A stretch of 64,000 nt of DNA from Candidatus Latescibacterota bacterium (GTDB lineage: Bacteria > Latescibacterota > UBA2968 > UBA8231). The notes under the pieces were generated by a model that searched no databases, had not been told where the DNA came from, and was given only the letters and a program-made list of their open reading frames with translations. Shown here piece after piece: positions 40,561-62,934 of the stretch; positions within the stretch are counted from its first letter, which is position 1, and each line of letters opens with the position of its first letter. Both the position numbers and the translations under genes were made by a program. The stretch lies in NCBI GenBank assembly GCA_965197905.1, contig CBDAOB010000004.1, forward strand, positions 704,001-768,000, read 5' to 3'.

Positions 40561-40588
40561 GTCACCTTCACAACGGACCGAACCTACG

Positions 40589-41623: not shown

Positions 41624-41643
41624 GGGACGCGGGACGTCGGCAA

Positions 41644-44085: not shown

Positions 44086-44157
44086 AAACGCAGAGACTCC
44101 GGTGAAAAGGCGACCCGAGTCCAGGTCCGGACGCTTCTCCCGTAAACTGACGCAACG

Positions 44158-46140
44158 ATGAAGATATTTCAAACCCAAGCGGCGAGATACGCTCTTCTGG
44201 GGGCCCTGTTTGGATGTTCGTTTCCGGCGGGTGCCATTTTGATCGATCTGTTTTTTTTGCACAATCTCGATCTGACCGTGCGCAATGTAGTCATGATACA
44301 ATCGCAGCAGCCGTTGCACTGGATCATCGATTCAGCACCGATTGTACTCGGCTTGCTGGCGATGTTCATCGGACGGCACCAGGACCGCCTAGCGACCATC
44401 CACCAGGAGCTCGAACGGGAGCAGAACCTGGTTCGAGGATTGGCGAAGTTCCCTGAAGAAAACCCCCACCCGGTACTTCGCGTTGCCGAGGACGGCGAGA
44501 TCCTGTATTCCAATCGTCCCGCTTCCGAACTCCTGCGCAATATGGCAAACGGCGGACGACTGAATTCCCAGTGGGGAGAAATCGTGATCGCGACGCTGAA
44601 AGGCGGCGACAGCTACGAAGAGGAGCTGGTCGTCGAGGACCAAACCATGTCGTTAGTATTTACGCCCGTTGTCGATATGAAATACGTTAATATCTACGGC
44701 AGAAACGTTACCCGGAGGGTACGGGCTCTGGAGGAGCTAGAGATCGCCAAGGAGGCGGCCGAAGCGGCAAACCGGGCGAAGAGCGAATTCCTCGCCAACA
44801 TGAGTCACGAGCTCCGAACCCCCATGAACGCCATTCTCGGCTACGCCCAGATCCTCGAGTCCGCCGATGACCTGCCCGTGCAGCACCGCAACTCGGTCGA
44901 GACCATAGGCGAGAGTGGCGAGCATCTTTTGTCGCTGATCAACAACATCCTCGACATATCCAAGATTGAAGCGGGACGGGAGGAGCTGAACGAGCTCCAT
45001 TTCGACCTGAACAACATGCTGCATGGACTGGCGTCGATGTTCGAGATCCGGTGTCGCCAACAGGGTCTCACCTGGAAGCTGGAGATCGCGGGTGATCTGG
45101 GCGTCGTCATCGGTGATGAGGGCAAGCTTCGTCAAATATTGATAAATCTCTTGGGGAACTCGATAAAGTTCACCTTTCAAGGTAACGTTACCTTGAAAGT
45201 AGAAGCGCCCACCGACAAGCTGTACTACTTCGAGGTGTCCGATACCGGCAAGGGAATCGGACCGGAAGCACGGAGCTACATCTTCGAACCGTTCCATCAA
45301 GAGGGAAACAGCTTCTCCCAAGGAGGGTCAGGGTTGGGACTGGCCATAAGCCGGCGATATGTGAACATGATGGGAGGTGAGCTGCAATTCGATTCCGAAG
45401 TGGGAGCCGGTACTCGGTTCTACTTCCGCGTGCCCTTTGCGCTTGGCGATCCGCCCGCGGGAGTTTCATCGCGAGATGCTTCGAGCAAATGGCAACGGGT
45501 GAAACGATTGCGCGATGATACCCCGGTCTATGCTTTGGTCGTTGATGACGTCACGACGAACCGCGATGTGATCGCTCAGATCCTGCGGTTCGTCGGCGCT
45601 GAGGTCGAAACCGTCGAGTCGGGCAGATTAGCCCTTGAGCAGGTTCGCCGAAAGCGGCCGGATATAATTTTCATGGACATTCGCATGCCAGAAATGACGG
45701 GCGTCGAGGCGATGCAGAGGTTGCGCGAAGAGCACGGAGAAGGGGCATCCAAGATTGTGGCGGTCACGGCGTCGGTGTTTGAGCATCAGAGACAGGCGCA
45801 ACTGGCAGCAGGATTTGATGGTTTTATTGACAAACCGTTGCGTGCGGGGCAGGTCTACGCCTCTATGGCAGATCTGCTGAACGTCGAGTACGAATTCGAG
45901 GCCGTTCAGCGCAGCGAGACCGCCGACTGGTCGGATTTGCAGCTTCCCGTGGAGCTCCATGAGCGCTTGCTTGCCGCCGCCGATTCTCACAGTGCGTCGG
46001 AGCTGCGTCGTAATCTTGAGTCTCTGAAGAATCTTGGCTCGAGCGGAGAGAGTCTTTTCGAGCACTTGCAGTCATTGGCCCGGCGGTATGATATGAGCGG
46101 AATCAGGTCGGTGCTAGAGGATCTTTCAGGGAACCGTTGA
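44158..46140 (+). CDS. Membrane hybrid sensor histidine kinase (2 TM, PAS, HisKA, HATPase, REC)
   Basis: FPEENPHPVLR, MSHELRTPMN, NLLGNSIKFT, DTGKG, GSGLGL and MDIRMP. Confidence 0.92.
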   Translation: MKIFQTQAARYALLGALFGCSFPAGAILIDLFFLHNLDLTVRNVVMIQSQQPLHWIIDSAPIVLGLLAMFIGRHQDRLATIHQELEREQNLVRGLAKFPEENPHPVLRVAEDGEILYSNRPASELLRNMANGGRLNSQWGEIVIATLKGGDSYEEELVVEDQTMSLVFTPVVDMKYVNIYGRNVTRRVRALEELEIAKEAAEAANRAKSEFLANMSHELRTPMNAILGYAQILESADDLPVQHRNSVETIGESGEHLLSLINNILDISKIEAGREELNELHFDLNNMLHGLASMFEIRCRQQGLTWKLEIAGDLGVVIGDEGKLRQILINLLGNSIKFTFQGNVTLKVEAPTDKLYYFEVSDTGKGIGPEARSYIFEPFHQEGNSFSQGGSGLGLAISRRYVNMMGGELQFDSEVGAGTRFYFRVPFALGDPPAGVSSRDASSKWQRVKRLRDDTPVYALVVDDVTTNRDVIAQILRFVGAEVETVESGRLALEQVRRKRPDIIFMDIRMPEMTGVEAMQRLREEHGEGASKIVAVTASVFEHQRQAQLAAGFDGFIDKPLRAGQVYASMADLLNVEYEFEAVQRSETADWSDLQLPVELHERLLAAADSHSASELRRNLESLKNLGSSGESLFEHLQSLARRYDMSGIRSVLEDLSGNR

Positions 46141-48449: not shown

Positions 48450-49691
48450 TCAGGGCACGGGTTTCGATCTGTTTTTGTAGATCTCTTCGTGACCGGGGGG
48501 AATGACCCCGCCGATCTTCAGCGCCTGTTTTCCGTTCTCGCCGGCGAAGGGACGCGCCAGAAATTTGGGTTCCTCTTCGACGAAAACTACGACGGGTCCC
48601 GTCTTTGGTGTGTCCGAACAGATGATATCGCCGGTCTTCAACGTTCGGGCTTCGCCCAGGGAGATCTGCGTCCGCCCCAGCTCGGCCGTAACCGGCATGA
48701 AGGTCTTGTTCAGACGCTGGTTGTTCTGTTGAATCAGGTCATCTTTATTCGTCTGTGAAATCCGGACATAACTTTGTTGTCCCAACCGCGGCAGGATCGA
48801 TTCGAGGGTAAAGAAGGGATAGCACAGGCTGACCAGGCCCGAGGCGTTTGTAGAGTTGACCTCGAAAGCCAGCAGGATGACGATCTCACTGGCCGCCGTG
48901 ATCTGCATGAACTCCGGGTTGGTCTCCAACTCGATGTCGGTGACCTCTACCCGCAGAATCGGCTCCCAGGTCGCTTCCAGATCTTCGATGACCCGCTTGG
49001 TGATGCGATGAATCACACCAACCTCGATCGGGGTCAGGGTTCGCGGTTCCACGCCTTTGTGGGAGCCCTTACCGCCGAAAATCCTGTCGACGAAAGCGAA
49101 GGTTACCGGCATGGCAAAATCGATGATCGCCTGCCCATTGGTGGGACCCAATGTAAACTGGTAGGAACAGGACGGATTCGACAGTGACATGATGAATTCG
49201 GCATAGGTAGTCTGGTCCACGAACGCCGTTTCCACATCCACCACGGCACGCATGGCGCCGGAAAAGGTGGAGCTCAGCAGTCGGGCGAAGTTGTCGTGCA
49301 GGTTTTCCAGGGTGCGCAGCTGATCCTTGTTCACCCTCGCCGGGTGTTTAAAGTCGTAGCTGGTGACTATTCGTTTTTGAGGTCGTCCGCGGTTCTCCTT
49401 CTTCTGTTGCATCTCCATGTATTGAGCCAAAGCCTCTCCCATCGCCAGGCGCAGCTCCTCCCGCGCCTTTTTCGATATTCTCTTGCCCTTGAGCAGGGTG
49501 TCCAGCTCCTTCAGCGCTGCCGCCTCCAACGCCTCTCCCCGTTCATTGACCGCCAAACCTGCCAGTCTCTGCAGAAAACCCGAAATTTGGCTCTCGTCCA
49601 GCTTTTGCTTCTTGAGACGGCCGTAGAAACCGTCCGACTCCTTGGATAAGAGCAGCGCATCGATTTCATCCTGAGAGAGTATGTCAGCCAT
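48450..49691 (-). CDS. fliM: Flagellar switch protein FliM (copy 1)
   Basis: ILSQDEIDALL, YDFKHP, GGKG, LETNP and C-terminal SPOA domain. Confidence 0.92.
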   Translation of the reverse strand: MADILSQDEIDALLLSKESDGFYGRLKKQKLDESQISGFLQRLAGLAVNERGEALEAAALKELDTLLKGKRISKKAREELRLAMGEALAQYMEMQQKKENRGRPQKRIVTSYDFKHPARVNKDQLRTLENLHDNFARLLSSTFSGAMRAVVDVETAFVDQTTYAEFIMSLSNPSCSYQFTLGPTNGQAIIDFAMPVTFAFVDRIFGGKGSHKGVEPRTLTPIEVGVIHRITKRVIEDLEATWEPILRVEVTDIELETNPEFMQITAASEIVILLAFEVNSTNASGLVSLCYPFFTLESILPRLGQQSYVRISQTNKDDLIQQNNQRLNKTFMPVTAELGRTQISLGEARTLKTGDIICSDTPKTGPVVVFVEEEPKFLARPFAGENGKQALKIGGVIPPGHEEIYKNRSKPVP

Positions 49692-49709
49692 GTCAGTCTC
49701 CTACAAATC

Positions 49710-51023
49710 TTAGACGTAATCGTCTCCGGTGTCGCCGCGAACTATCCTAACCTTCCCCTGCTCTTCGAGCTGCCTCACTGTTTGCACGATCCGCAGCTGC
49801 ACCTCCTCCACATCACGGCGCAGCATCCGTTCCAGCCCCTCCATGCCTTCTCGAACCGAGGTGCAAGCCCGCTCCGACATGTTGCTGAAAAATCGTTCTC
49901 GCAGTTCCTCGCCGGCCTGTTTTAGTGCGATGGTAAGATCTTTCTCATCTGTTTCGCGTAACAGAGTCTGGATTTCGGTATCCGTCATCTTGCCGATCTC
50001 GGCGAAAGTAAACATCTGATTGCGCACTGATTCGGCCACCTCCGGATCCTGCGCATCCATCTGGTTGAGAACGGTCCGCTCCACGCTTGAGCCCGTCAAA
50101 TTCAGCACGTCGGCCAGCACCTTGGGTCCGCCTACGTCCTGATCCCGACCGAGCAAGTCTCGAAGAGAAGCTTCCAAAGCTTCTTCGAGGTTCGCGATCA
50201 CCTTTTGAGGGACGTTCTCGGTAGTCGCCATTCGATATGACACGTCTGCCTGTAAACGTTCGGGCAATTGTGCCAGTACCCCTGCTGACCTGCGTGGTTC
50301 AAGCTGCGAGAGAATGAGCGCGATCGTCTGCGGGTGCTCGTTAGATAAGAAGGGAGCGATCTGATCCGCCTCCACTCTGTTGAGCATGCTGAACCCGGAT
50401 TCGGTAGAATCTATATTCCTGTCAACAAAGTGATTCGCCCGGTGTGGTCCCACCACCTTGGTCAGCAGCCCGCGGGCATACGCCGGGCCGCCGATCTCCA
50501 CGTAGTCACCAGCCACGATGCGCCGGTGCGCTGTCTCCAACGCGTGCATAGCGAGCTGATGCCCAACCTCGGGCATCTCCGCAATAGCTCGCGCGACGAG
50601 CTGAGTTTCCTCGCCCAGATGTCGGCAGACCTGGGCACCAATTTCCTCGCCCAGACCGATCAATATGGCCGCTACCAACTGTTGAGCAGTCAGATCAGAG
50701 AGCGGTCCCTCGTCCCGGCTTGCCTCTTCTCTTCGGATGATAGTTCGGACCACGGCTGCTGTTTCTTTAGCGTGGTGAAAGAGGTAGGCATGGGTGCTGT
50801 CAGCGGCGATTCCAGACGGTAGGAGAGGCGCCGAGGAGGTGTCGGGAGGTTTTGCCACAGCCTCCACGGTCTGGGGGCGCGGTTTTGGCACGTGCAGGGG
50901 TGGCATCGCGTCGACGGCAGCCTCGTCTGGGCATGTCCAGCTTGCAACCGTTTGTTTCTCTTTAAACTCGGTCGAGCCGCCCACGATGCGGGCCCCTGTA
51001 GTTTTTTGAGGCGCGGCGCTCAT
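49710..51023 (-). CDS. fliG: FliG-family protein with N-terminal extension
   Basis: [32 protein letters not shown] and DVEE.Q. Confidence 0.9.
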   Translation of the reverse strand: MSAAPQKTTGARIVGGSTEFKEKQTVASWTCPDEAAVDAMPPLHVPKPRPQTVEAVAKPPDTSSAPLLPSGIAADSTHAYLFHHAKETAAVVRTIIRREEASRDEGPLSDLTAQQLVAAILIGLGEEIGAQVCRHLGEETQLVARAIAEMPEVGHQLAMHALETAHRRIVAGDYVEIGGPAYARGLLTKVVGPHRANHFVDRNIDSTESGFSMLNRVEADQIAPFLSNEHPQTIALILSQLEPRRSAGVLAQLPERLQADVSYRMATTENVPQKVIANLEEALEASLRDLLGRDQDVGGPKVLADVLNLTGSSVERTVLNQMDAQDPEVAESVRNQMFTFAEIGKMTDTEIQTLLRETDEKDLTIALKQAGEELRERFFSNMSERACTSVREGMEGLERMLRRDVEEVQLRIVQTVRQLEEQGKVRIVRGDTGDDYV

Positions 51024-51295
51024 GAGGTCACCTCGTGATCGACGGGAAAATCGTGAAGGCGGGTGATGCGTACGGCCATGAGGTCTGTAACAACCACGAT
51101 CTCCCCTTCGGCAAAGGGCCTCCGGTTGACCAGCACACCGAAGGCCTCGCCGGCCAGTTTATCGAGCTCGATGACGTCGAACGCCTGCAGCCTCCGTACC
51201 TGACCCAAGGTCATTTCCTTGCGACCCAATTCCACCATCACTTCGGCCACCACATTGGCCAGATCCGCGCGTGGGGTGCTTTCGAGAGTTGTCAT
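51020..51295 (-). CDS. fliN: FliN/SPOA-domain protein (type B)
   Basis: VELGR, VIELDKLAGE and GEIVVV..MAVRIT. Confidence 0.82.
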   Translation of the reverse strand: MTTLESTPRADLANVVAEVMVELGRKEMTLGQVRRLQAFDVIELDKLAGEAFGVLVNRRPFAEGEIVVVTDLMAVRITRLHDFPVDHEVTS

Positions 51296-51307
51296 TCGGA
51301 CCTCCTC

Positions 51308-51604
51308 TCAGACCTGTCCCAGAACCTCGGTGAGTCGCACGCCGAAGTTCTCATTGACCGTGATGACCTCACCCCGAGCGAAGTGTTTGCCGTTGACGAA
51401 TACGTCGATGGGATCGCCCACCTCCTTGTCCAATTCGATCAGCGACTGTTCGCCCATGTCGGAGATGTCCTCCATGGTTTTCGTGGTACCACCGAGTACC
51501 ATCTGGACCATGACGGGCATATCCTCGAGCAGGTCGATATTGTCACGTGGTGCCGCCGGCTTCGGCGGAACTGCCTTTTTCTTTGGGGTCTTGCTCGTTG
51601 CCAT
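51308..51604 (-). CDS. fliN: FliN/SPOA-domain protein (type A)
   Basis: IELDK..GDPIDVFVNGK.FARGEVITVNENFGVRLTE. Confidence 0.88.
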   Translation of the reverse strand: MATSKTPKKKAVPPKPAAPRDNIDLLEDMPVMVQMVLGGTTKTMEDISDMGEQSLIELDKEVGDPIDVFVNGKHFARGEVITVNENFGVRLTEVLGQV

Positions 51605-51695
51605 TTCGCTTTGCTCCTTCCCTCGAAGTGGGTAGATGAGCCGCTCGCTTCAACAGTGTACGGAACTCCAGAGCATAATCCTATAAGGGTTTTTA

Positions 51696-53201
51696 CTAGG
51701 TAGATGGAGCTTCCCTAAGGTCAAGACCGAACCTGTAGGCGTAGAGCACCGCTGGCCCATCCGCCTCAAAATGCAGTCGCACTTCCTGACCCACGAAACG
51801 TGCCAGATCGCTGCGCTCCTGCCCCCAGGTGATTTCGAAGTCGGTTTGGTCGTCGCGCTCCAGGCCGTTGCAGTTGTCCAGCTCGAACCCTTCCGGAACC
51901 TCGGTATCGCATACCACCCGAACTCGGATGCGGCCGTTGTTACTCGGCTTCTTTGTGCCGAAAACGCTGGCATTCAGAAATAACCTTGCGCCGTCGACCC
52001 GCACGGGTTCAGTCATCAACTCGCCGGCGCCACCCGTGCACATCCCCACGAATCCATCCTTGCGCAACGTCGCCAGACCGATGGCCGCCTGGAACTTTTG
52101 ATCGCTGCCGTGACGACGCATGCCCGAATACCAGATGTGCAGCACGTTGTCCTTGAGGATGGGCGGATTCAGCGATGACGAGACCCAGCCATGGTCCCAG
52201 GCGCCCGGGGTCCCGATGGGCAGGAACTGTTCGTGTTTCCCGACTCGATGCCACTTCGTGAGGTCGCGCGCCGTAGCCAGCTCAGTTGCACCTTGGCCCG
52301 TCGAGGTGTAGAAGAGCGCCAGAAATCCCAGGTATTGATTGCCATAGGCAAACGGCGTCATCAGCTCGAACTGGTCGCGTGTCTCGTCGAAGTCATCCGG
52401 TTTGAGAACCGTCTCCATCGGAGTCCAGTTGACGAAGTCCTCGCTGGTACTCAAGGCGACCACCTTGCGGTACTGCTTCCACTGCAGAATGAAATGATCG
52501 GCAATCGTCCCAGCGCGCCGCGACACGGCTATGAACCGACGTGTGCCCGGATCGAAAACGACCGCGCCGCCATCGCCGGCTCTCGCAATAGACGGTTGGT
52601 CGTCCAGGGTCCAGCGGATTCCATCGTTGGAGTGGGCAGTGTACATGCCATGGCGCTCGAGCACGGACTCAAAATACCTTCGCCGGTCTTCCGGACTCGC
52701 TGATTTTCCGGCACGAGGCAGCTCTGCCTGGCGCTCCTGGTAGTACCCCATCTTGTAACGGCGCGTTGCGTCTTCTTCGCGGTCATCCTTGATGATGCCC
52801 CACGGGTGCAGCGAGCCGTGCTCCGGACGAGTTTCCGGCGTGGGGTAAACGATGTTGTTCGCCGTAGATCCCTGAAACGGGAACACGCCCAGCTCGGGCT
52901 TGTCCCACTTCACGCCGTCGGTTGAGCTGGCGTAACAGATATACTTCTGGGCTTCGTTGCCGGCGCCGGCGGGACCGTGGGTGAAGTACCACATTTTGAG
53001 GAGGTCTTCGTCGCCGTCGTAGAGGACCGATCCCCACATCTGCACCGCGCTGCCTTCCCAGGGACGGTCGGCACGCAGCACCGGCTCGGTCTGGGCGCGA
53101 GCAGGTTGTTGCACCTTGCGCACGAAACCGGGATGATCCTGAACCTCGGCGTCATCTACGAATAGGTGCAGACCAGGATCGTGGAGATCACTGACGATCA
53201 T
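51696..53201 (-). CDS. Hypothetical beta-propeller glycosidase-like protein
   Basis: Repeated S.DG..W Asp-box-like motifs and LRKDGF. Confidence 0.65.
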   Translation of the reverse strand: MIVSDLHDPGLHLFVDDAEVQDHPGFVRKVQQPARAQTEPVLRADRPWEGSAVQMWGSVLYDGDEDLLKMWYFTHGPAGAGNEAQKYICYASSTDGVKWDKPELGVFPFQGSTANNIVYPTPETRPEHGSLHPWGIIKDDREEDATRRYKMGYYQERQAELPRAGKSASPEDRRRYFESVLERHGMYTAHSNDGIRWTLDDQPSIARAGDGGAVVFDPGTRRFIAVSRRAGTIADHFILQWKQYRKVVALSTSEDFVNWTPMETVLKPDDFDETRDQFELMTPFAYGNQYLGFLALFYTSTGQGATELATARDLTKWHRVGKHEQFLPIGTPGAWDHGWVSSSLNPPILKDNVLHIWYSGMRRHGSDQKFQAAIGLATLRKDGFVGMCTGGAGELMTEPVRVDGARLFLNASVFGTKKPSNNGRIRVRVVCDTEVPEGFELDNCNGLERDDQTDFEITWGQERSDLARFVGQEVRLHFEADGPAVLYAYRFGLDLREAPST

Positions 53202-53214
53202 CGTCGCCGTACCA

Positions 53215-54219
53215 TTAGACGATCTTGTGCAGTTCCGCCCAGTACCTGATGAACGCGATATCCCGGTCGAAAGTGCCGTCGAAGACCCAGTTGCGGCCCC
53301 AGTCCTCCACCTGCGCCTCCGTGCCCGAACGCCAGATCAGGCGGGCCAGCACGAAGAGTTTCACCGCCTGCAGTTCGGGCTCACTCGGTTGGCGAATGCT
53401 CGAATACCCCTCCAGATAGAAGTTCCAACGGCGGTCCGATTTAGCCCGTCCGGAACGCGTCGCACCGTCGACCTGCGCATTCTTGGCGAGAAATACAGCC
53501 AGGTCGTAGGCGCGCCAGCCGTAGCCGTAACAGTCGAAGTCGAAGACCGTCATGCGGCCCTGTTCGTCCACGTGTACGTTGCCGCCGTAGTGATCTCCGT
53601 GGCAGCAGCCGTACTCCGGCCGGGTCAATGGAAGAAATCCGTCTAACCTCGATTTCAGTTCACTGCCGATCTTCATGAGGCAATCGAGATCTTTGCGTCG
53701 GTGTTCCAAACACTGGGTAACGCTGCGCAACGAGTCGTCCACCAGGTAGCCAAGATCGAGATGGAAACGCCTGCGATCCTCATCACATTTGTCCAGGCAC
53801 CTGTGCATTCGCGCCAGCAGCTCACCGTAAGCACGCGAATTTCTCGCGTTGAGCTCCATTGGCTGTCCCGGCGCGTAGGTGAACAGCGCGGCATAACGCA
53901 CGCCTTCGGGTGCGGCGATCCGCGTCAGAAACGAACGGTCTTTCCTTTTTATTGGATAGGAAACTGGAAGCTTGTGGCGGCGAAGATAGGTCAGCATCTC
54001 GAGCTCCGCCTGGATCTCCGCCTTGGTGCGCCAACCGTGTCGGTAGACCCTCAGTATGAACTGTGAGGAGCCCGCGGTAACCGCGTAGGTGTCATTGAGT
54101 CCCGGATTGTGGAAATAACAACGCGCGGGTGCGGGGAGCGAAAATTTGCTCAACACGCGCTCGGCCAGCGCCTGGCCCGCGAGAATTGAATTGTTCAAAG
54201 GGAAATGGTGCTGGTTCAT
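53215..54219 (-). CDS. APH / homoserine kinase type II family phosphotransferase
   Basis: ILRVY, HGDHYGGN, FDFD and YDLA. Confidence 0.85.
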   Translation of the reverse strand: MNQHHFPLNNSILAGQALAERVLSKFSLPAPARCYFHNPGLNDTYAVTAGSSQFILRVYRHGWRTKAEIQAELEMLTYLRRHKLPVSYPIKRKDRSFLTRIAAPEGVRYAALFTYAPGQPMELNARNSRAYGELLARMHRCLDKCDEDRRRFHLDLGYLVDDSLRSVTQCLEHRRKDLDCLMKIGSELKSRLDGFLPLTRPEYGCCHGDHYGGNVHVDEQGRMTVFDFDCYGYGWRAYDLAVFLAKNAQVDGATRSGRAKSDRRWNFYLEGYSSIRQPSEPELQAVKLFVLARLIWRSGTEAQVEDWGRNWVFDGTFDRDIAFIRYWAELHKIV

Positions 54220-54273
54220 ACTACCGCGCCTTCATCCTCCCGCTTCCAATCTGAGTTGGTCGGTCTGTTTCGG

Positions 54274-55122
54274 TTATGCTAAGCGCCGAAACACCTCGAT
54301 GCTCGCGGCGCCGTAGGTTTCTTCGAGCACCACCCCTCCCCTCTCTCGGCACACCGTCTTCAAAGGTTCCGCCGCGTTGCCGGGACAGAAACCGTGCCCA
54401 CACACCTCGAATGCAGCGACGTCGTTGAGACCGTCTCCCACCATAGCGGCGTCGGAAGCAGGGACGCTCAGCATCTCCAGGAGGATTTGGGCGCCGGTTC
54501 CCTTGTCGACTGGTGAGGTGACATCCACATGAAATTCGTTGTAGTAGAACCGCAGACGCCCCTGTTGGATGGAGGTGTGCATCCTGAGGACCTGTTTCAG
54601 ATCCTCGACAAGAGACGATCCGGTTGCCGACGGAGGGACATGAAGGGTGAGCAAGGTTTCTTTTGGAATCTGGTGAATCTCACTCCCGATTTTTTCGGCG
54701 AGCAGCTCTTCTCCGCCGGAGTTGTACCAGTGGATAAGTTCCTGCACCTCGCTCAGATCTTCGAAAGGTGCGGCGAGCTCGGGTCGCTGCGACTCCTCGG
54801 CGACGGCGACCAGGTCGATGGTCGCATCCTGTATCAGGTCGTATGCGACCGCCCCGGTTTCTGACAGCACGTAACGCAGCTTCGAGGTCGCGAGCTCTTC
54901 GGCGATGAAGAGGGTGTCCAGCAAGCGCCTGCCGGTGGCCAGGATGACCTTTTCGACGCTCGAATCGTCAATGGCCGCGCTGACCCGCGCCAACATCTCT
55001 TTCTGGTCCGACGTAAGTCGGCGGTGTTCTTCGCCGGAGACGAATTGGGTTCCATCCTCGGGATTCAGGCATCCGTCGACATCGTGGAACAGAACTCGGA
55101 TAGGGCTCGTTTCAGGCGACAT
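54274..55122 (-). CDS. HAD-IIB (Cof-like) hydrolase
   Basis: DVDGCL, ATGR, DKG and GDGLND. Confidence 0.85.
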   Translation of the reverse strand: MSPETSPIRVLFHDVDGCLNPEDGTQFVSGEEHRRLTSDQKEMLARVSAAIDDSSVEKVILATGRRLLDTLFIAEELATSKLRYVLSETGAVAYDLIQDATIDLVAVAEESQRPELAAPFEDLSEVQELIHWYNSGGEELLAEKIGSEIHQIPKETLLTLHVPPSATGSSLVEDLKQVLRMHTSIQQGRLRFYYNEFHVDVTSPVDKGTGAQILLEMLSVPASDAAMVGDGLNDVAAFEVCGHGFCPGNAAEPLKTVCRERGGVVLEETYGAASIEVFRRLA

Positions 55123-55366
55123 GGTTTAGATACTCATTCGACCCGACCCTGCCGTCAAACGGCCGGAGGAGGGCTGAACAGACTCTTTCAGCCCTTCGAG
55201 TAGATTGGAAGCGGCAGGAAGGCTGGTTGGGTTTGCGTTTGAGCAGGCAAGCCGTCTGCTGAAAACTGCGCAGGCGCTGAATCTTGAGCGCCCAGAATCG
55301 ATCGATTTCTCATCCCACCGTTGTTGTCTACGGGGAAAAAAGCGCCAGCTCAGAGAGAATTGAGTC

Positions 55367-55382
55367 AGGTACGCGTCTTGCT
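55367..55382 (+). promoter_or_regulatory. Possible sigma-54 promoter
   Basis: AGGTACGCGTCTTGCT gives GG-N10-GC, about 55 nt upstream of the ATG at 55439. Confidence 0.45.
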
Positions 55383-55438
55383 GTAACTCTTCGAGCCACC
55401 AATCAAGGTGCCACCATCAATTCGTAAGAGGTATCGCC

Positions 55439-55801
55439 ATGAAAAACCTTTTGCAGATCGTCTGCGCAATTTTCGCCACCGCTCTGTTTGTTTTCGGATC
55501 CGGATGTTCGTCGTCCAGTACATCCTCTGAACCTGGCAGGGTAGGAAAGCTGGGAGTACAGCGCGACAGAGAAAGCAATGAAACCGAGGAAGAGATCGCC
55601 ATTGAAGCATTGCCGGCCGTAGTGGTCGATGCCGTAAACGGTGCCGTCGAAGGCGGCGTTATCGTTGAAGCCGAGAGGGAAACCGAAGACGGCCAGGTGA
55701 TTTACGAAGTGGAGGTTGACGTGGATGGCGTTGAGTGGGAAGTGGAAGTCGATGAGGATGGCAACGTGCTCGAGGTTGAAAGTGAGGACGATGAGGAGTG
55801 A
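55439..55801 (+). CDS. PepSY-like exported (lipo)protein
   Basis: Signal peptide with lipobox-like GSGC; LP.VV..AV, YEVEV and EVEVDEDGNVL. Confidence 0.78.
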   Translation: MKNLLQIVCAIFATALFVFGSGCSSSSTSSEPGRVGKLGVQRDRESNETEEEIAIEALPAVVVDAVNGAVEGGVIVEAERETEDGQVIYEVEVDVDGVEWEVEVDEDGNVLEVESEDDEE

Positions 55802-55844
55802 GGACGATGAGGATGAGGATGAGGATGAGGATGATGACGATTGA
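55781..55844 (+). repeat. 16-bp tandem duplication followed by a GAGGAT microsatellite
   Basis: AGTGAGGACGATGAGG at 55781 and 55797, then GAGGAT repeats. Confidence 0.85.
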
Positions 55845-55856
55845 GCCGTAGAACCA

Positions 55857-55906
55857 CAAGAGGCGACGATGGCGCGCGAACCTAAGAGCGCCGTCGCCGC
55901 CTCTTG
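55857..55906. terminator. Stem-loop between convergent genes
   Basis: CAAGAGGCGACGATGGCGC...GCGCCGTCGCCGCCTCTTG, an imperfect 19-bp stem. Confidence 0.55.
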
Positions 55907-56011
55907 CTGCATGTCCTTTGCTTAGCTCCGACCCGCGTCTTCCAAGCTCTCGCAGACAACAGTCCCTTATCGCCTGACGTCCAGGAGGGATCGCAGAAAT
56001 GCGGGTGAGTT

Positions 56012-59000
56012 CTACCGGCGTTGCGCATTCTTGATTTTTTCCAACAGCCTCTGAATCGACGCCATGTCGAAAGATTCCGCATGTTCCTGCATCGTCGTCG
56101 CCAGCTGGTTGGCACCCGGTCCTATCTCCCCTAGCTCGGCCAGCGCCTGCCGCAACTCGGTTATGTTGGCCACCGCGGCGGACTGGGTTAGACGAGTGAC
56201 TAATTCTGCAGGCAGCGAAACGCGACTTGGATCGATCGGCGCTTCCACCTTAAGCGCCGGTTCTGCCGCATCCCTATCGGAGTAAACGAATTCCACCCCC
56301 AGCAGATCTGCCAGACAACTGTAGATCTGTTCGACGCGTACCGGTTTGCCGACAAACTCGTCGAACCCCGACGACAGATAGTGCTGACGTTCGTGTTCCA
56401 ACGTCGAAGCGGAGACAGCCACCGCTTTGATCGCTGTCGTCGCTGGATCTGTCTTCAACCGTTCAACCGCCTCGTTGCCATCCATTTCCGGCATGCGAAT
56501 ATCCATGAAGACGATATCCACCGTCTCTTCACGCGCCGCCTCCACCGCTTCGCGACCGTTGACGGCTTGCACGACGTGAACGCCGATCGCTTCCAAGAAT
56601 TGCGCCAGGATGTCGCGATTCTCCTTGACGTCATCCGCCACAAGGGCGCGCACGGAGTGAGCCGGATCCAGTCCAACGATACGACTCCAGTCGCGCTCCA
56701 CTTTTGGTGGCAACACGCTCTGCGACCGGGATAATTTGATGCTGAACGAGAAGGTGGTTCCTTTTCCGACCGCGGACTCCAGCTCGAGGGTACCCCCCAT
56801 CAACTCCACCAATCGCTTCGACACCGCGAGTCCGAGCCCGGTGCCGCCGCGCTCGTACCCCGCGCTGCCCTGCTGAAAAGGCTGGAACAGCTCCTGTTGC
56901 TCATCGGCACCGATACCTTGCCCCGTGTCCGTCACCACGAACCGATAGTTGTCGGGACCCGCAGGGGTGACGTTCAAAGAAACGGAACCTTTCTGGGTAA
57001 ACTTCACCGCATTGCCCAGCATGTTTATGAGCACCTGCATGAGTTTGCTTTCGTCGCCTCGAACCGAGACGCGGCCCGGGCTCGGCAACTCGAGGCGCCA
57101 TTCGAGACCCGCTTCGCGACAGCGAAGATCAAACATTACCGCTAGGCTCTGGAGCAGCTGGTCCAGGTCGAAATCCGACTCCTGAATCACCATTCGGCCC
57201 GCTTCGATCTTCGAGATGTCCAGGACCTCATTGATCAGCTTGAGCAGATGATCGCCGCTGGTCTGGATCGTTCCCACCGCCTGCCTGTGTTTGTCGGTCA
57301 GATCCGGGCTGTTCTGCATGATCTGCGCGTAGCCGATGATCGCGTTCATTGGCGTGCGAATTTCGTGGCTGATATTAGCCAGGAATTGCGACTTGGCCTG
57401 GTTGGCCAACTCGGCCGCATCCTTGGCTTCGCGGAGTTCGGAAATCAATTGGTTCTGAGCTTCGGTGGCCTCCTGAAAATCGCTGTAGCGGGCGTAGGCC
57501 AAGTCTACGACTTCGGCGAAGTCTTGGACGCGCCCAATCTCGCCCCCGGTAAATGCGGTTCCCTGACCGCTCCATCCCCGTTGCAATACCAGCGCGCCAC
57601 GGCTGTAAGGCACGTTGACTCCCCAGATCCTGGCTTTGGTATTGAGGGTGTCATCGGGTTCTAGGGTCGCCCAGCTCGATTTTTCCTGCTCCGTCATCTC
57701 CCCATGCCAAGTCTGTGCGGAACGCCATTGTTCGATGTAGTTGTGACTGAATTCGGTTTTTGCTTCGTTTGAAAGAACCTGGAGTCCGGTCTCCTCGTCC
57801 TCGGGGCGAACAACCTGTATGGTACCAGTCGCTTCGTTCAGAACGCAGACGTAAAGCAGATCGAATCTAACCCCCATTTGACGCAATTCGTCTCCTACCT
57901 GGACGATCACCTTTTGAAGATCATCCGACCTCTTCATGGCGAGAATAGTACTGCGGACCCGCTCGAGGGCTTGCTCCGCGGAGAAGCTGCGCAACAGATC
58001 TGCCATGTCGGTGTCGTCTTTGTCGACGCTCTCGAGGATGTTACGCGTGACCGGCGTGCTGCTTATGTTGAGAATGTCGGCTACAACCTTCGGGCCACCC
58101 ACGTCCTGGTCGCCAACCAGGATATCCCTCAACGACTGTTCCAGGGCTTCTTCTATCTGGTTGATGGCGTTGGGGGTGACGCTATCCATGGTCGCCATTC
58201 GATAGGCGACATCTGCCTGCAGAGGCTCGGGAAATTGGGCCAGAAGGCCGGCAGCCTGGTCCGCACCTAGCTGCGAGGCAATTAGCGCTATGGTCTGCGG
58301 GTGCTCATTGGCCAGAAACGGCGCCAGTTGATCTGGTTCCACGTTCTTGAGCATGTAGAATCCAGCCGTCACCCTGCTGGAGACGCGGGCTAGGATCTCT
58401 TTGGCTCGGGGCGCTCCAACGGCACGGGTAACTGCGGCGCGGGCAAAGTCCATTCCTCCGGTGCTCAACCACGTTCCTGCAAGCAGATGCTGCCTGAACT
58501 CTTCCAGCACGTCGTCGCGAAGCGCTTTCGGAGTGCCCTGCAAACGGGCAATCGCCTGGGTGGTCTCCTCTATCTCGAAATCGGAGAGATGTTGCATTAT
58601 CATGCCGGACACCTCTTGGCCGACAGCGACCATCACGATGGCCGCTTTTTGAATCGCCTCTAGCCCGCTCTCTTCGGTGGATTCATCGTCAACAAGCATC
58701 GTGCTCACCAGGTTGGCCGCCTCAGCCGGACGGTTACGCATGAATTCGTAGACAGAGGTAGATTCGTCAACGTGAAACGGAGCTGAGTCCTCTGTGCGAG
58801 TCGTACCTGTTTCGAGCCGTCCCTGCTCCGTGACGGAGGGCGCGATCTCCTGCTCGGGTTGATCGTCTCGTACTGGAGAAGCTTCAGCCGCGCCTGGCGC
58901 CCTTTCCTCCTGAAGGAGGGAGAAGGCCTGTTCCCAATTCGTCGAGGACGGGTACGCTGGCACGGGTGCCATCGAACCTACCTCGCTGTGGGAGGGGGGT

Positions 59001-59083
59001 CTCCACTCCTCAACGGAAACCAGATGTAACTTGCTGCTCCTCAATCCTAGAATGCGACCCGCGGATTTCTCTGATGCAGACAT
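56012..59083 (-). CDS. FliG(N/M)-GAF-like-hybrid histidine kinase fusion
   Basis: [21 protein letters not shown] and [11 protein letters not shown], then [27 protein letters not shown] and REC (ADD, MDIRMP, KP), all in one frame. ATG at 59083 after GAGGAGG. Confidence 0.9.
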
Positions 59084-59104
59084 CTGTTCCTCCTGCCTCG
59101 TCAC

Positions 59105-59461
59105 CTATGATTCCTCACGAAGCGATTCTGACCCAATGGAATCGAGTCGCAGATCGTATGCCTGTTCCTTGCGAACGTGGAAGCGGACCAGCCTGCAAGC
59201 AATGCGATCTCCAAGCACGACGATCTCGCTTTCGGCAAACGGATGGTTGTTGGCCAGAACGGCGAACGCTTCCCCGGCTTGTTTATCCAGAACGATGACG
59301 TCGTCTGGACCCAAATCGGAAACCTCGCTCAGCGGCATGCGTTTGCGACCCATTTCGACCACCAGCTGCATACGTACGCTTCCCAGATGTTGCAGGTTTT
59401 CCGCTTCACGCCGCAGCAGGTCTGTCGCCTCGTTCGGGTTGAGTGATAAGCTTTCGTTCAT
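59105..59461 (-). CDS. fliN: FliN/SPOA-domain protein (type B)
   Basis: VEMGRK, VIVLDKQAGEAF and FAESEIVV. Confidence 0.78.
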   Translation of the reverse strand: MNESLSLNPNEATDLLRREAENLQHLGSVRMQLVVEMGRKRMPLSEVSDLGPDDVIVLDKQAGEAFAVLANNHPFAESEIVVLGDRIACRLVRFHVRKEQAYDLRLDSIGSESLREES

Positions 59462-59760
59462 TTTTCGTCCGCTCCGGAATCCAGAATCTCCGTCACTCGC
59501 ACACCGAAGCTCTCACCGACAGTCACCACGTCCCCTTTGGCGAACTGCTTGCCGTTCAGGCGAATGTCGATCGACTCTCCCACCAACCGGTCCAACTCGA
59601 TAATCGAATGTTCGTCCATTTCCAAAAGCCGGTCCAAGGTCTCCTCGGTGCGCCCCAATTCCATGCAGACCGTCACCATGACGTCCGGAATTTCGGCGGG
59701 TTTGTGCGTTGCATCGGTCTTGATTGCTTTCGTGGTCGCTTCCTGCTTCGTCCCGGGCAT
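59458..59760 (-). CDS. fliN: FliN/SPOA-domain protein (type A)
   Basis: ELGRT, IIELDRLVGESIDIRLNGK.FAKGDVVTVGESFGVRVTE. Confidence 0.88.
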   Translation of the reverse strand: MPGTKQEATTKAIKTDATHKPAEIPDVMVTVCMELGRTEETLDRLLEMDEHSIIELDRLVGESIDIRLNGKQFAKGDVVTVGESFGVRVTEILDSGADEK

Positions 59761-59781
59761 GTCTGTTAGCTCCTGTCTGTT

Positions 59782-60786
59782 CTATTGGCCTTCCAATGGA
59801 TAGTCTGCCTTCAACTCTTGCGGTACCTTTCCCACGACCTGCAGCTTGATTTCTCCAGCCTCGTTCGCAAACGGACGGGCGTAGAGCTTGGGCTCGCCGC
59901 CGACAAACACGATGCAGGGGTCGGTCTTGTGACCTCGCATGCAGACCACGTCGCCCACCCGCATTCCGTCGACGTCTTCCAGGGCCAGGTCAGTGCGTCC
60001 CATCTCCACTACCAGCGGCATCTTCGCGGGGCCGAGCACCGAGCGGTTGCGCCGAGTCGTTGCCTCCCGATTCAAACGGGGGCCACGTACATAGTGTTGT
60101 TCGCCTAAAAGGGGTAGAATGGGCTCCAATGTGAAGAAAGGATAGCACATCTTGACCAATTGCTTGCTGATATGCGCTGAATTCACCTCAAATGCGATAA
60201 GGATTACGATTTCGCTGGGAGCGGTGATTTGGAGGAACTCAGGGTTGGTCTCCAGCTCGATGTCGGTGATCTTAACCTTTTGAATCGGCGCCCACGTTGC
60301 CTCGAGATCCCCGATGACGCGCTTGGCCGAACGGTGCGTGACGCCGACCTCGATCGGTGTCATCGTCCGGCCTTCGACTCCTTCCGATGAGCCCTTCCCC
60401 CCAAAAGTCCGGTCTACCAGCGCGAACACGAGCGGCAAAGGGAAATCGAGGATTGCCAGTCCGCGAGTGGGGCCCAGCGCGAACTGGTAGGAACAGGAAG
60501 GATTGCTCAAGGACATGATGAACTCTGCGTAGGTAGTCTGATCGACAAAAGCGGTATCGACGTCGACCACGCCCCGCATAGCCCCGGAGAGCGTGGAGCT
60601 GAGCAGTCGGGCCAGATTGTCGTGCAGGTTCTCAAGGGTCCGCAGCTGTGATCTGCTTACCCTTGCGGGGTGTTTGAAATCGTAGTCGGTCGCCGGCTTG
60701 CGCTCCCCTTCCTCCTTTATCGATGGTGCTTCGTGATTGTTGCTTTTCGCGTCCTCCCGCTGTGCCTTAGCGCTCTCTGACATCAT
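59782..60786 (-). CDS. fliM: FliM (copy 2) lacking the CheY-binding peptide
   Basis: YDFKHPARV, GGKG, LETNP and SPOA domain; near-identical core to copy 1; GGAGG before ATG at 60786. Confidence 0.9.
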   Translation of the reverse strand: MMSESAKAQREDAKSNNHEAPSIKEEGERKPATDYDFKHPARVSRSQLRTLENLHDNLARLLSSTLSGAMRGVVDVDTAFVDQTTYAEFIMSLSNPSCSYQFALGPTRGLAILDFPLPLVFALVDRTFGGKGSSEGVEGRTMTPIEVGVTHRSAKRVIGDLEATWAPIQKVKITDIELETNPEFLQITAPSEIVILIAFEVNSAHISKQLVKMCYPFFTLEPILPLLGEQHYVRGPRLNREATTRRNRSVLGPAKMPLVVEMGRTDLALEDVDGMRVGDVVCMRGHKTDPCIVFVGGEPKLYARPFANEAGEIKLQVVGKVPQELKADYPLEGQ

Positions 60787-60818
60787 CGATACCTCCGCTG
60801 CAAGGTGGAACATTCGTC

Positions 60819-62324
60819 TCATCCTGGATGCTGCGCGGCTCCGTCCGCATCTGGTGCCTCGCCCTGGACCGACCGCAACACGCGATAAAGCCGGTTCCGG
60901 CTCGTGCCCAGTAGCTCCGCCGCCTTCGTCAGGTTCCCATCACAATGAGCCATCGCTTTTTCTAGAACCTTCGATTCAGCCTGCAGTGCAGCCGCATCGA
61001 GATCCAGCGGCAGCTCGTCTTCAGTGCTGATCCTAGTTTCCGTGTCCGCCGCCCCACCTTTCGGCGCCACTGGAAAATTCAAATGATGCACCTCGATTCC
61101 CTTGCCGCGACTCTCTATCACTGCCCGTTCGACGACGTTCTTCAGCTCCCGCACGTTGCCGGGAAAATCGTAGGTCTCCAGGCGGCCGACCGCCTCCGCG
61201 CTCAGGTCCGGCAGGTCGCATCCCATCTCCTCGGCGAACAGCCGTGCAAAGTGATTCGCCAACAGGCCGATGTCATCCCGGCGCTTGCGAAGCGGCGGCG
61301 TCTCAACGGTGTAGCGTGCCAGACGGTAGTAGAGATCCCGCCGAAACGAGCCTTCCTGAATCCAATTCTGAAAATCGACGTTGGTCGCTGCGAGAATGCG
61401 CACATCGACGTGCCGGCTTGCGGTCGCGCCCACCGGCCACACCTCCCCATCTTCGAGCACGCGCAGCAGCTTGGTCTGCAGTGCCGGCGGCATGTCCCCA
61501 ATCTCGTCGAGGAAAAGGGTGCCGCCGTGTGCCATCTCGAAATAGCCGATGCGATCCTCGCTGGCGCCCGTAAATGCGCCGCGCCGATGGCCGAACAGTA
61601 CCGACTCTACCAGGTCTGTGGGGATTGCGCCGCAGTTCACCGGGACAAACGGTCCGTCCCGGCGCTCGCTGCCATAGTGGATCGCCCGCGCGATCAGCTC
61701 TTTGCCGGTGCCGCTTTCGCCGGTGATCAGCACCGAGGTGGTGGGGTTCTCCTGCATGAGCTCGACCTCGGCAAAAATCTTGCGCATTGTCGAGCTGTCC
61801 CCGATAAGACCTTCCAGCCCCCAGCGTTCCTCTTCGCGGCGGGAAATCATCGAGAGTTGCCCGCGCAGAGATTTGCGCATGCTGATCTCACTCTCGAGCT
61901 CCCGATTCTTCTCTTCAAGGGCCAGATGCAACCGCCGGAGTTGGATGTGCGCCGTTACCCGTGCCAGCACCTCTTCTTCCCGGAAAGGTTTGACCACGTA
62001 GTCCACGCCACCGGCCTGGAAGCCGGCGATGACGGCCTCTTTCTCGTCCCGGCCGGTGAGGAATATGACCGGGATAGCTGCGGTCTCCGGTTCAGCTTTC
62101 AGGCGTCTGCAAACCTCGAAGCCATCCATTTCGGGCATGACGACATCGAGCAGAACAAGGTCCGGATTGGCCTGCTTGGCGATCTTTAGAGCCGCAGCTC
62201 CCTCGGTCGCGACCATTACCTTGTGTCCTCTTGCTTCGAGGACCTGCAGAAGCAGTTTGAGATTTGTCGGGTTGTCATCGACGGTCAGGACTCGAAAAGT
62301 TGTGTTGACTTGATCTGCGGTCAT
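60819..62324 (-). CDS. Sigma-54-dependent response regulator (NtrC family; REC-AAA+-HTH)
   Basis: REC domain, GESGTGKE, GAFTGA, LFLDEIG, FPGNVREL and Fis-type HTH. Confidence 0.95.
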   Translation of the reverse strand: MTADQVNTTFRVLTVDDNPTNLKLLLQVLEARGHKVMVATEGAAALKIAKQANPDLVLLDVVMPEMDGFEVCRRLKAEPETAAIPVIFLTGRDEKEAVIAGFQAGGVDYVVKPFREEEVLARVTAHIQLRRLHLALEEKNRELESEISMRKSLRGQLSMISRREEERWGLEGLIGDSSTMRKIFAEVELMQENPTTSVLITGESGTGKELIARAIHYGSERRDGPFVPVNCGAIPTDLVESVLFGHRRGAFTGASEDRIGYFEMAHGGTLFLDEIGDMPPALQTKLLRVLEDGEVWPVGATASRHVDVRILAATNVDFQNWIQEGSFRRDLYYRLARYTVETPPLRKRRDDIGLLANHFARLFAEEMGCDLPDLSAEAVGRLETYDFPGNVRELKNVVERAVIESRGKGIEVHHLNFPVAPKGGAADTETRISTEDELPLDLDAAALQAESKVLEKAMAHCDGNLTKAAELLGTSRNRLYRVLRSVQGEAPDADGAAQHPG

Positions 62325-62350
62325 TGCCAGTTGGCTTCCACATGATGGAT

Positions 62351-62367
62351 GGCAAAGGACATGCCAA
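62351..62367 (-). promoter_or_regulatory. Sigma-54 -24/-12 promoter
   Basis: Minus strand TTGGCATGTCCTTTGCC matches TGGCA-N6-TTGC (GG-N10-GC), about 27 nt upstream of the ATG at 62324. Confidence 0.78.
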
Positions 62368-62395
62368 ACCTGAACGAGCCACTGCTAGAGTGGTA

Positions 62396-62408
62396 TAACT
62401 TATTGTAA
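62396..62408 (-). promoter_or_regulatory. IHF-like site
   Basis: TTACAATAAGTTA resembles WATCAA-N4-TTR, in an AT-rich patch between promoter and palindrome. Confidence 0.5.
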
Positions 62409-62457
62409 ATTATCGTTTAAACTTGATTTCATAGCGATGGGATCAACGGGCAAGGTG

Positions 62458-62475
62458 CGTACCGAAATCGGTACG
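62458..62475. promoter_or_regulatory. Palindromic operator / upstream activator sequence
   Basis: CGTACCGA-AA-TCGGTACG, with partial copies at 62508-62519 and about 62601-62610. Confidence 0.6.
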
Positions 62476-62934
62476 TACGCCACGCATTCGGAGCACCGCT
62501 ACGCTAGGAAATCGGTACGAGGAACCAGGCGAACCCTGTTTGGAACGCACACAGTGTACGGAAGACTCGGGCAGATTCCTACTTCGCATTTCTGCTAGGT
62601 TTTCGGTACAGAGTCTGATTCAGGTCGGCAGCGAATTGAAGCGTGGACACCCTCAACAAGGATGACAGGTTTTGACAGAGACTACTGAGGTTTGGAAGAG
62701 ACACCCCCGGGAGCGGGCGCCTTCAGGTCTAGCCAATCATCTATACAATGGATTGGTATGATCGAAACGGCAACCGGCATTCCACACCGAGCACTGGTTT
62801 CCGTGCGCCAGAATACCCCCCGGTCCTGGTGTAGCAGGTTCCAGGTCATGAACGTGGGATTGCGATTGTGAAATCGTTTCAGCCGCCGGAACGTGGGTCG
62901 AGGTAGGAAGACCCCGGTCCCGGCCAACCCCTTC

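Follow-up and report, generated by a model that had tools for sequence, protein, structure and literature searches.

Background

The flagellar C-ring, which FliG, FliM and FliN build up, is a textbook ultrasensitive switch whose state can be read solely as rotation. Passages of PMC11087270 describe a Salmonella FliG in which D3 and D4 intercalate around the ring and D5, the domain bearing the torque helix, has little contact with its neighbors; the orientation of this helix is set by the MFxF hinge (parts of PMC11853002), and the N-terminal domain of FliG (FliG-N) co-folds with the tail of FliF (excerpts of PMC7355467). In addition, C. jejuni, V. cholerae, and P. aeruginosa have kinases that sense the assembly of FliF/FliG, according to sections of PMC3760246 and PMC7064773. 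The present study concerns a stretch of 64,000 nucleotides (hereafter the window) from a Candidatus Latescibacterota genome (G000; contig CBDAOB010000004.1, positions 704,001 to 768,000), which harbors two cassettes of C-ring genes among other genes, one of them encoding a FliG joined to a hybrid histidine kinase at the point where the torque domain would be expected. The cassettes are proposed, with a probability of about one half, to form motor-detached C-ring-like oligomers that feed a phosphorelay and serve motility regulation.

The FliG-kinase fusion

All nine cassette open reading frames (ORFs) were confirmed, all on the minus strand, in the order fliN-fliN-fliG-fliM for cassette 1 (48450-51604) and ntrC-fliM-fliN-fliN-fliG::kinase for cassette 2 (56012-62324), with operon-like gaps or overlaps of 0-21 bases within both. 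Their coordinates and Pfam domains agree with an earlier note on this DNA, which had proposed two C-ring cassettes of this composition. All cassette FliG, FliM, and FliN homologies lay above the Pfam cut-offs, and the TIGR equivalog cut-offs were passed by FliG, FliM, and the first FliN (type A) of cassette 1, but not by the second FliN (type B) or the cassette-2 proteins. The fusion comprises the following features.

56012..59104, minus strand: FliG::hybrid histidine kinase, 1030 amino acids from GTG (1023 from the ATG at 59083), by Pfam
58970..59053, minus strand: conserved N-terminal motif R-I-L-G ... W-x-P-P, residues ~18-45, common to cassette FliGs, with Trp invariant in 15/15 aligned
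58682..58750, minus strand: internal copy of the FliF C-tail, residues 119-141, directly before FliG-N (profile E=0.0028)
57989..58672, minus strand: residues ~145-372, FliG domains D1-D4, containing the EHPQ and Gly-Gly motifs and ending at the MFxF hinge
57470..57982, minus strand: GAF-like domain in place of the torque domain, without a Pfam hit, of the same family as the repeats of multi-GAF kinases
56318..57397, minus strand: HisKA-HATPase-REC, with all catalytic residues of a hybrid histidine kinase intact (HisKA His, HATPase N/G boxes, REC Asp)

Pfam placed FliG_N at residues 148-244, FliG_M at 257-327, HisKA at 570-636, HATPase at 683-792, and REC at 821-929, without FliG_C; the TIGR00207 match stopped at position 233 of the 338-position profile, and directly after the MFxF hinge the matches to multi-GAF kinases set in. 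FliG sits where the sensor domain of a kinase usually is. The junction is exactly at the D4/D5 border, with the ring-forming and FliM-binding domains staying and the torque domain alone replaced; D4 of Salmonella FliG ends at this point (PMC11087270, in part). In the structural model, a single helix (residues 365-388) runs across the junction (mean predicted local distance difference test (pLDDT) 72.6, predicted template modeling score 0.38), and the junction residues S373-F374 are invariant in 16/16 sequences. The FliG part (fragment of residues 42-277) folds as FliG, with Z 15.7 to 8WIW and Z 15.1 to 4FQ0 (root-mean-square deviation 0.9 over 79 residues); the fold search with the full-length model returned kinase domains only and ESM Atlas only GAF/HisKA clusters. 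No transmembrane segment was evident in the fusion sequence or model.

This architecture was found in 20 sequence clusters, namely 16 of 27 search matches (own protein included) and four more proteins, with identities down to 38% over the aligned proteins; two of the clusters have no REC and carry a different kinase. Four of 168 phylum genomes, in four genera, contained the fusion, and the related-locus search gave 2 loci. The depositors' names for homologues and related loci were Candidatus Latescibacteria/Latescibacterota (P0008, P0030) and Gemmatimonadetes (P0011 and a related locus). FliM-FliG fusions without FliG-N were also among the matches (P0025-P0027). Because short-read contigs of two studies span the junction, the fusion is not regarded as an assembly error: contig X1 covers 55759-61733 with 0 substitutions and 1 gap, and contig X3 covers 56074-60976 with 3 substitutions, although either study may be the source of the window sequence.

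The W-x-P motif near the N-terminus, which we take to resemble the N-terminus of FliH, was considered as a FliH mimic binding the FliN pair and rejected, as the FliH N-termini of this lineage do not have the motif; the predicted complex of the motif with the FliN pair scored 0.28 (mark 0.32).

An internal FliF tail in cassette FliGs

The FliF of the genome ends in a FliG-binding segment, and a copy of this segment stands directly before FliG-N in the fusion. A profile built solely from 15 true FliF tails and searched against 36,357 ORFs gave three matches under E=0.01, i.e., FliF, a 113-amino-acid membrane protein with two helices, and residues 119-141 of the fusion, and three fusion orthologues scored 1e-20 to 1e-21 with it. 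When the stretch before FliG-N was scored with this profile, at a threshold set to the 99th percentile of 3450 shuffles, 15/29 cassette FliGs passed, compared with 1/37 stand-alone and 0/3 canonical FliGs. A second-round profile, trained on 13 other cassette copies as well and with three fragments without N-termini dropped, was passed by 14/15 held-out cassette copies (27/28 including those in training), 0/35 stand-alone FliGs, and 0/3 canonical FliGs. In the stand-alone FliGs, the N-terminus is mostly too short for a tail segment. Independently of this, the region's profile could be aligned with the FliF end of 8Z4D, an engineered Vibrio FliF-FliG fusion, with FliG-only chains starting ~30 positions later, and in the AlphaFold model the segment forms two helices of high confidence (pLDDT 92-95). 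From these similarities we infer that cassette FliGs may cap their own FliF site and block the FliF of the membrane-supramembrane (MS) ring, so that they would not need to bind that ring.

Two short relatives of FliF were observed elsewhere in the genome. The 113-amino-acid protein (C5:1711414-1711755; L094:7414-7755, minus strand) consists of two membrane helices and the FliF C-tail and could be a minimal anchor for stand-alone FliG; orthologue-like matches occurred in ten other genomes, all FliG-positive, with the query also matching real FliF C-termini. A 190-amino-acid mini-FliF (C3:312402-312974; L018) has one ring-building domain between two membrane helices and no tail, and similar short matches were found in five other genomes.

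The operon of cassette 2

The remaining features of cassette 2 and its upstream region are as follows.

60819..62324, minus strand: NtrC-like sigma-54 activator, 501 amino acids, with REC, sigma-54 AAA domain (GAFTGA and Walker A/B), and helix-turn-helix
59782..60822, minus strand: FliM, 346 amino acids, with the GGxG FliG-binding loop kept and without the N-terminal CheY-binding motif
59458..59760, minus strand: FliN type A, 100 amino acids, FliMN_C
59105..59461, minus strand: FliN type B, 118 amino acids, FliMN_C; orthologues in G008 and G015 are fused to a sulfatase-modifying (formylglycine-generating enzyme, FGE)-like domain
62351..62367, minus strand: sigma-54 (-24/-12)-like promoter, 43 nucleotides upstream of ntrC, 2 mismatches to the consensus
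62459..62474, no strand assigned: palindrome upstream of the operon, a candidate enhancer for the activator, with related sites in G008 and G015

The whole ntrC-fliM-fliN-fliN-fliG::kinase operon is kept in three genera (G000, G008, G015), and the motifs of the FliG-FliM interface, EHPQ and GGxG, are retained. The activator fell under all named-family cut-offs including NtrC (FlgR 255.8 vs 750, FlbD 282.8 vs 750), with no orthology of the FlgR or FlbD type. Its two nearest paralogues (61% and 57%) are both located next to a hybrid kinase, in either case one of the nearest paralogues of the fusion's kinase part, and on this ground activator and fusion kinase are probably a cognate pair.

A sigma-54-like site was present at the equivalent place in G008 (3 mismatches) and G015 (2 mismatches), and the genome has rpoN; sigma-70 promoter and terminator scans gave chance-level results. 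The palindrome has one perfect match in G000, before its own operon, a result that is partly circular since the pattern was derived from the same site and that of G008. Two more partial copies of its half-site lie at 62503-62519 and 62594-62610.

Cassette 1 and the rest of the window

Cassette 1, which has no kinase gene, contains the following features.

51308..51604, minus strand: FliN type A, 98 amino acids, FliMN_C, TIGR02480 85.4 bits vs cut-off 84.05
51020..51295, minus strand: FliN type B, 91 amino acids, FliMN_C, nearest to a stand-alone FliN on contig C5 (65%)
49710..51023, minus strand: FliG, 437 amino acids, FliG_N/M/C, with a W-x-x-P N-terminal extension and a degenerate FliF-tail copy
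50724..50798, minus strand: helix pair resembling the FliF C-tail within this FliG, ~residues 76-100, by profile scores
48450..49691, minus strand: FliM, 413 amino acids, FliM+FliMN_C, with the N-terminal CheY-binding motif kept and followed by a ~90-amino-acid insert

With the FliF-only profile, the tail copy of this FliG scored 0.3 bits, which is not significant; the second-round profile gave it 10.6 bits, compared with 3.7 for the 99th percentile of shuffles. The torque helix of this FliG is partly degenerate: in the E. coli residue numbering assumed here, residues equivalent to R281 and D288 are kept, those equivalent to D289 and R297 have been lost, and the G-P motif is missing as well. 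FliN-A is nearest to the FliN of the flagellar cluster (64%), and FliM is 79% identical to the flagellar-cluster FliM over residues 106-413. FliN types A and B are distinct and conserved, each with a counterpart outside cassettes, and stood in the order A then B in 16/16 further cassettes tabulated.

A Pfam scan of the 59 window ORFs detected no fliF, fliH/I, fliP/Q/R, mot, flg, flagellin, or che gene, as the earlier note had stated; it had overlooked a gene of the flagellar assembly protein A family (FapA) at 41530-44085, the sole other flagellar-type gene in the window. This gene belongs to a cluster of REC, kinase, REC-GAF, FapA, and hybrid kinase genes (38710-46140). FapA has eight copies in the genome, six of which adjoin REC or kinase genes, and it stands beside cassette 1 in G002 and G014.

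Flagellar genes and switch-part paralogues in the genome

Genome-wide family searches found the fliF, export, mot, flg, flagellin, and che families outside the window, and contig C5 carries a complete flagellar gene set. One block contains flgB-flgC-fliE-fliF-fliH-fliI-fliJ-fliK with hook genes, C5 also has motA-motB-fliL-fliM-fliN-fliO/P-Q-R-flhB-flhA-flhF-fliA, and a second block contains flgF-G-A-H-I-J-N-K-L, fliD, fliS, and flagellins; the genome yielded ten Flagellin_N matches, and apparent frameshifts split several of its flagellar genes. A motor-less organism was thus rejected, as export, basal-body, hook, filament, and mot genes are all on C5. In support of the earlier note, the cassettes are not the motor's sole copies: they are extra, diverged paralogues, in a genome with totals of nine FliG, five FliM, and nine FliN-size proteins. 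Chemotaxis genes are sparse, with 2 chemoreceptor matches and one Wsp-like cluster (C4:1949023-1955867; L017), which encodes a receptor, CheR-TPR, CheB, two CheW, and a CheA with two Hpt domains that appears cut short.

The fliG gene is gone from the slot between fliF and fliH, and is likewise absent there in 14 of 16 fliF loci of relatives, the other two loci being cut or broken; the order fliF-fliG-fliH is kept in three genomes of other classes. The nine ORFs with FliG N and M domains comprise six stand-alone full-length genes, the two window copies, and a third cassette on C1. The six stand-alone FliGs are 68-92% identical to one another; four of them (on C3, C5, and C2) are 90-92% identical and scattered among unrelated genes, and in the tree stand-alone copies group by genus, which suggests recent duplication or gene conversion. 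The third cassette (C1:140221-142782; L007) has the order fliN-fliN-fliG-fliM, with a FliG that stops after D4 without an output domain, and adjoins a serine recombinase gene. At C5:1435007-1436221, a FliG_C domain is fused to a membrane helix and an uncharacterized C-terminal domain.

Spread and selection in relatives

FliG_C was matched in 22/41 sampled genomes, with up to 19 matches per genome, and FliM in 69 of the 168 phylum genomes. Two or more FliM matches occurred in 41 of 52 positives of this class, compared with one each in 17/17 positives of other classes, and FliP was single-copy in all 60 positive genomes; these copy numbers reveal that the switch parts were multiplied and the export gate was not, and that the expansion is class-wide. 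In a survey of regions picked for divergent FliG matches, the order fliN-fliN-fliG-fliM recurred in G002, G008 (twice), G014, G015, G021 (twice), G022, G124, G130, and G162, showing that the cassettes are conserved in related genomes. The form truncated after D4 was found in G000, G002, and G015, and frameshifts were present in the G002 cassettes.

Furthermore, the C-ring parts have entered diverse fusions. In G021 and in five protein clusters, FliM-FliN-FliG forms a single chain. REC-FliM, in which the CheY motif follows the receiver, occurs in G079, G101, and G162 and weakly in G107; FliN-FGE in G008 and G015; FGE-tail-FliG in G026, G079, and G101; and FliG-SpoIIE in one protein. Single-sequence fusions may be chimeras, and five fusions of FliG to unrelated domains look chimeric (P0123-P0125, P0134, P0163). 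Other observations were an extracytoplasmic function (ECF) sigma-FliG_C fusion in G026 (L062:4070-5341), a MotA-like-FliG_C fusion directly upstream of cassette 1 in G014 (L063:7702-8991; 44% to MotA over 160 amino acids), and a divergent stand-alone FliG type adjoining GAF-sigma-54 activators or REC-HDOD proteins in G021, G007, G012, and G015 (L064, L066, L056, L065).

By a simple counting method, 12 cassette gene pairs had ratios of nonsynonymous to synonymous substitution rates (dN/dS) of 0.06-0.34. Three pairs of stand-alone FliGs gave 0.014-0.043, and the neighboring kinase and FapA genes gave 0.16-0.18; two misaligned FliG-part rows were left out, and the fusion pair of G000 and G157 is near saturation (dS 1.7). 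These values indicate that the cassette genes are under purifying selection. At the position taken to be the torque-helix Arg, R or K was present in 36/36 stand-alone and in 7/18 full-length cassette FliGs, with strict Arg in 2/18 of the latter. In a quick IQ-TREE analysis, a 99% branch separated the six outgroup sequences from all paralogues; cassette FliG branches were long, and the kinase fusions fell in three places. Such a tree is consistent with duplication within the class, and establishes neither a root nor how many origins there were.

Proposed mechanism and alternatives

In the proposed mechanism, each cassette would supply a full spare set of C-ring subunits (FliG, FliM, FliN-A, and FliN-B) whose assembly does not depend on the MS ring. 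The cassette FliG's FliF tail, for which homology was demonstrated above, would fold in and cap the FliF site, leading to detachment. The oligomer may be a ring, an arc, or a small patch, in which the FliM-FliG contact and D3/D4 stacking would keep switching cooperative. In cassette 2, the last D4 helix would continue into the GAF domain and kinase, such that the assembly or switch state sets kinase activity; the kinase would phosphorylate the sigma-54 activator encoded with it, whose likely target is its own operon, possibly along with motility genes. Phosphorylated receiver domains that bind FliM, tethered in the REC-FliM fusions of relatives, could be the input, and the system would have branched off from flagellar regulation in bacteria that have few chemoreceptors. 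This proposal is supported by the FliF tail in cassette but not stand-alone FliGs, the profile match to 8Z4D, the co-folding of FliG-N with the FliF tail, the D4/D5 junction with its uninterrupted helix, the placement of FliG where a kinase has its sensor, the loss of the torque Arg in many cassette FliGs, the conservation of the operon and its sigma-54-like site, the dN/dS values, the repeated fusions of C-ring and signaling domains, and the low number of chemoreceptors. It also retains the signaling part of the earlier note's proposal, given the wiring to a kinase and a sigma-54 activator and the built-in FliF tail.

Several observations weigh against detached oligomers. Among the 168 genomes of the phylum, none that lacks flagellar genes was found to contain a cassette: the 99 genomes without FliM, several of them assemblies of one to ten contigs, cannot hold a cassette, and all 10 genomes with FliM and without FliP gave matches to flagellin, FlhA, or FliF. 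In G159, the flagellar genes are fragmented and FliM is matched weakly only, and G028, G161, and G162 have none of the basal-body markers searched and keep flagellins, but are so fragmented (170-690 contigs) that loss and assembly gap are indistinguishable. These counts include close relatives, which are not independent of one another, and many fragmented assemblies. Retention and loss of the cassettes appear to go along with those of the flagellum, and this co-occurrence makes the system look tied to motility; the independence from motility that the earlier note had envisaged is not supported in that form, the cell being flagellated. In addition, the FliG part of the fusion is nearer to stand-alone motor-type FliGs (57-61%) than to cassette-1 FliG (44%), as expected if the fusion must fit a motor ring; the CheY motif is gone from cassette-2 FliM in G000 and G015 and kept in G008, leaving the input to the complex unclear; and most cassettes have no kinase (fusion in 4/168 genomes, two or more FliM in 41 genomes). 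A free ring may also fail to form, since FliF is believed to be the template for the ring of FliG (PMC7355467, in part).

A bolder version of the proposal, which we hold only tentatively, would make the free cytoplasmic C-ring a cooperative amplifier, where phosphorylated receivers flip a motor-less FliM/FliG ring, the bound kinases switch all-or-none, and positive feedback renders sigma-54 transcription bistable. The class would then have a general toolkit for signaling made up of deconstructed motor parts, namely self-capped FliG, REC-FliM, two-helix FliF anchors, and the FliG-C tags of sigma factors and MotA.

The best-surviving rival, possible but doubtful in our judgment, keeps the cassette proteins in the motor. 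Self-capped FliGs would join the real C-ring through D3/D4 at places without a FliF tail, the kinase would report rotor assembly or clockwise/counterclockwise state to sigma-54 like a fused FlgS/FleS/FlrB checkpoint, and charge-degenerate FliGs would act as a clutch or brake. The strict co-occurrence with flagellar genes, the high identity of the fusion to motor-type FliG, and the kinases that sense FliF/FliG assembly in other flagellates speak for it, and Salmonella rings were modeled as FliF33:FliG34, so that a FliG without FliF fits in the ring (PMC11087270, in part). Sigma-54-like sites with 2 mismatches also precede flgF, one flagellin gene, and a stand-alone fliN in G000, weak matches of a quality reached at 87/5505 genes. 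However, each cassette comes with a FliM and two types of FliN, which would be superfluous for a dopant, a GAF-kinase dimer at the D5 position would be expected to occupy the site of stator engagement, and the perfect palindrome lies before the activator's own operon only. Moreover, 48 other FliM-positive genomes of the class gave no fusion with this query, which means that it cannot be a general checkpoint.

It is less likely that the paralogues serve as decoys that soak up phosphorylated receivers, FliH, or FliM/FliN, or that the FliG part merely targets or clusters the kinase without conformational control. The CheY motif and the torque charges, which are lost to a variable extent, the third cassette type that ends after D4 (G000 C1, G002, G015), and the FGE-like domains on FliN or FliG, which resemble appended modules, are in line with this explanation, but the swap placed precisely at the hinge for switching, the helix continuing through it, the invariant S373-F374, and the kept EHPQ and Gly-Gly motifs are not. 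Functionless decay or assembly chimerism is very improbable and, for the fusion, largely refuted already: the long branches of many cassette FliGs, their dN/dS above that of stand-alone FliG, the frameshifts in G002 cassettes and G000 flagellar genes, and the five chimeric-looking FliG fusions are outweighed by dN/dS well below 1 and like that of the neighboring genes, intact catalytic motifs, 20 clusters of the same architecture, gene order kept across genera, and a junction spanned by contigs of two studies.

Two further identities were rejected. For a FliY/CheC-type phosphatase role all proteins were below the cut-off, and for SctQ of the injectisome sorting platform the FliN-like proteins reached 28-55 bits vs the TIGR02551 cut-off of 100.8, with FliG and FliM as partners.

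Comparison with known systems

The novelty rests on the architecture. Full-text literature, with subscription journals and supplements outside its scope, gave no account of FliG-kinase fusions or of this switch-part expansion, and the parts of PMC13277936, PMC8789113, PMC7225975, and PMC11800159 covered do not describe either. A natural protein with a kinase in place of the torque domain, provided that its FliG needs no membrane ring, would be a soluble switch with an enzymatic readout, which would make conformational-spread models testable in the tube and provide a clear case of a motor part exapted for signaling. Should the cassette proteins instead work within the motor, the novelty of the system would drop, but the fusion would still be the first fused form of a rotor-sensing checkpoint and show where a kinase can sit on the rotor.

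Compared with the flagellar C-ring of Salmonella, Thermotoga, and Vibrio, the cassettes share all subunit types, the EHPQ, GGxG, and Gly-Gly motifs, and the FliG fold. They differ in that the FliF tail is held internally by FliG rather than on the membrane ring, that the torque domain is replaced, truncated, or charge-degenerate, and that several sets per genome lie outside the flagellar operon. Natural (P0022-P0024) and engineered (8Z4D) FliF-FliG fusions likewise place the FliF tail covalently ahead of FliG-N, but retain the transmembrane ring domains, whereas cassette FliG keeps just the last ~25-45 FliF residues. Spirochaetes also have multiple FliGs with divided roles (Borrelia FliG1/FliG2, three in Leptospira); these are two or three motor-related copies, and the passages of PMC7225975 and PMC11800159 at hand describe no kinase fusion or internal FliF tail.

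The FlgSR/FlrBC/FleSR checkpoint of polar flagellates similarly links a cytoplasmic histidine kinase and a sigma-54 activator to FliF/FliG, but its kinase is separate and needs the MS ring and export gate (PMC3760246 and PMC7064773, in part); the checkpoint drives rod and hook genes. Here, by contrast, the input domain belongs to the kinase itself and is FliG, the kinase is a REC-bearing hybrid and has private FliM and FliN, and the activator is below the FlgR and FlbD cut-offs. Finally, pairs of GAF-containing hybrid histidine kinases and NtrC-family activators, of which G000 has paralogous examples, share the GAF-HisKA-HATPase-REC order and the adjacent sigma-54 activator, whereas the N-terminal input module in the present case is a rotor protein.

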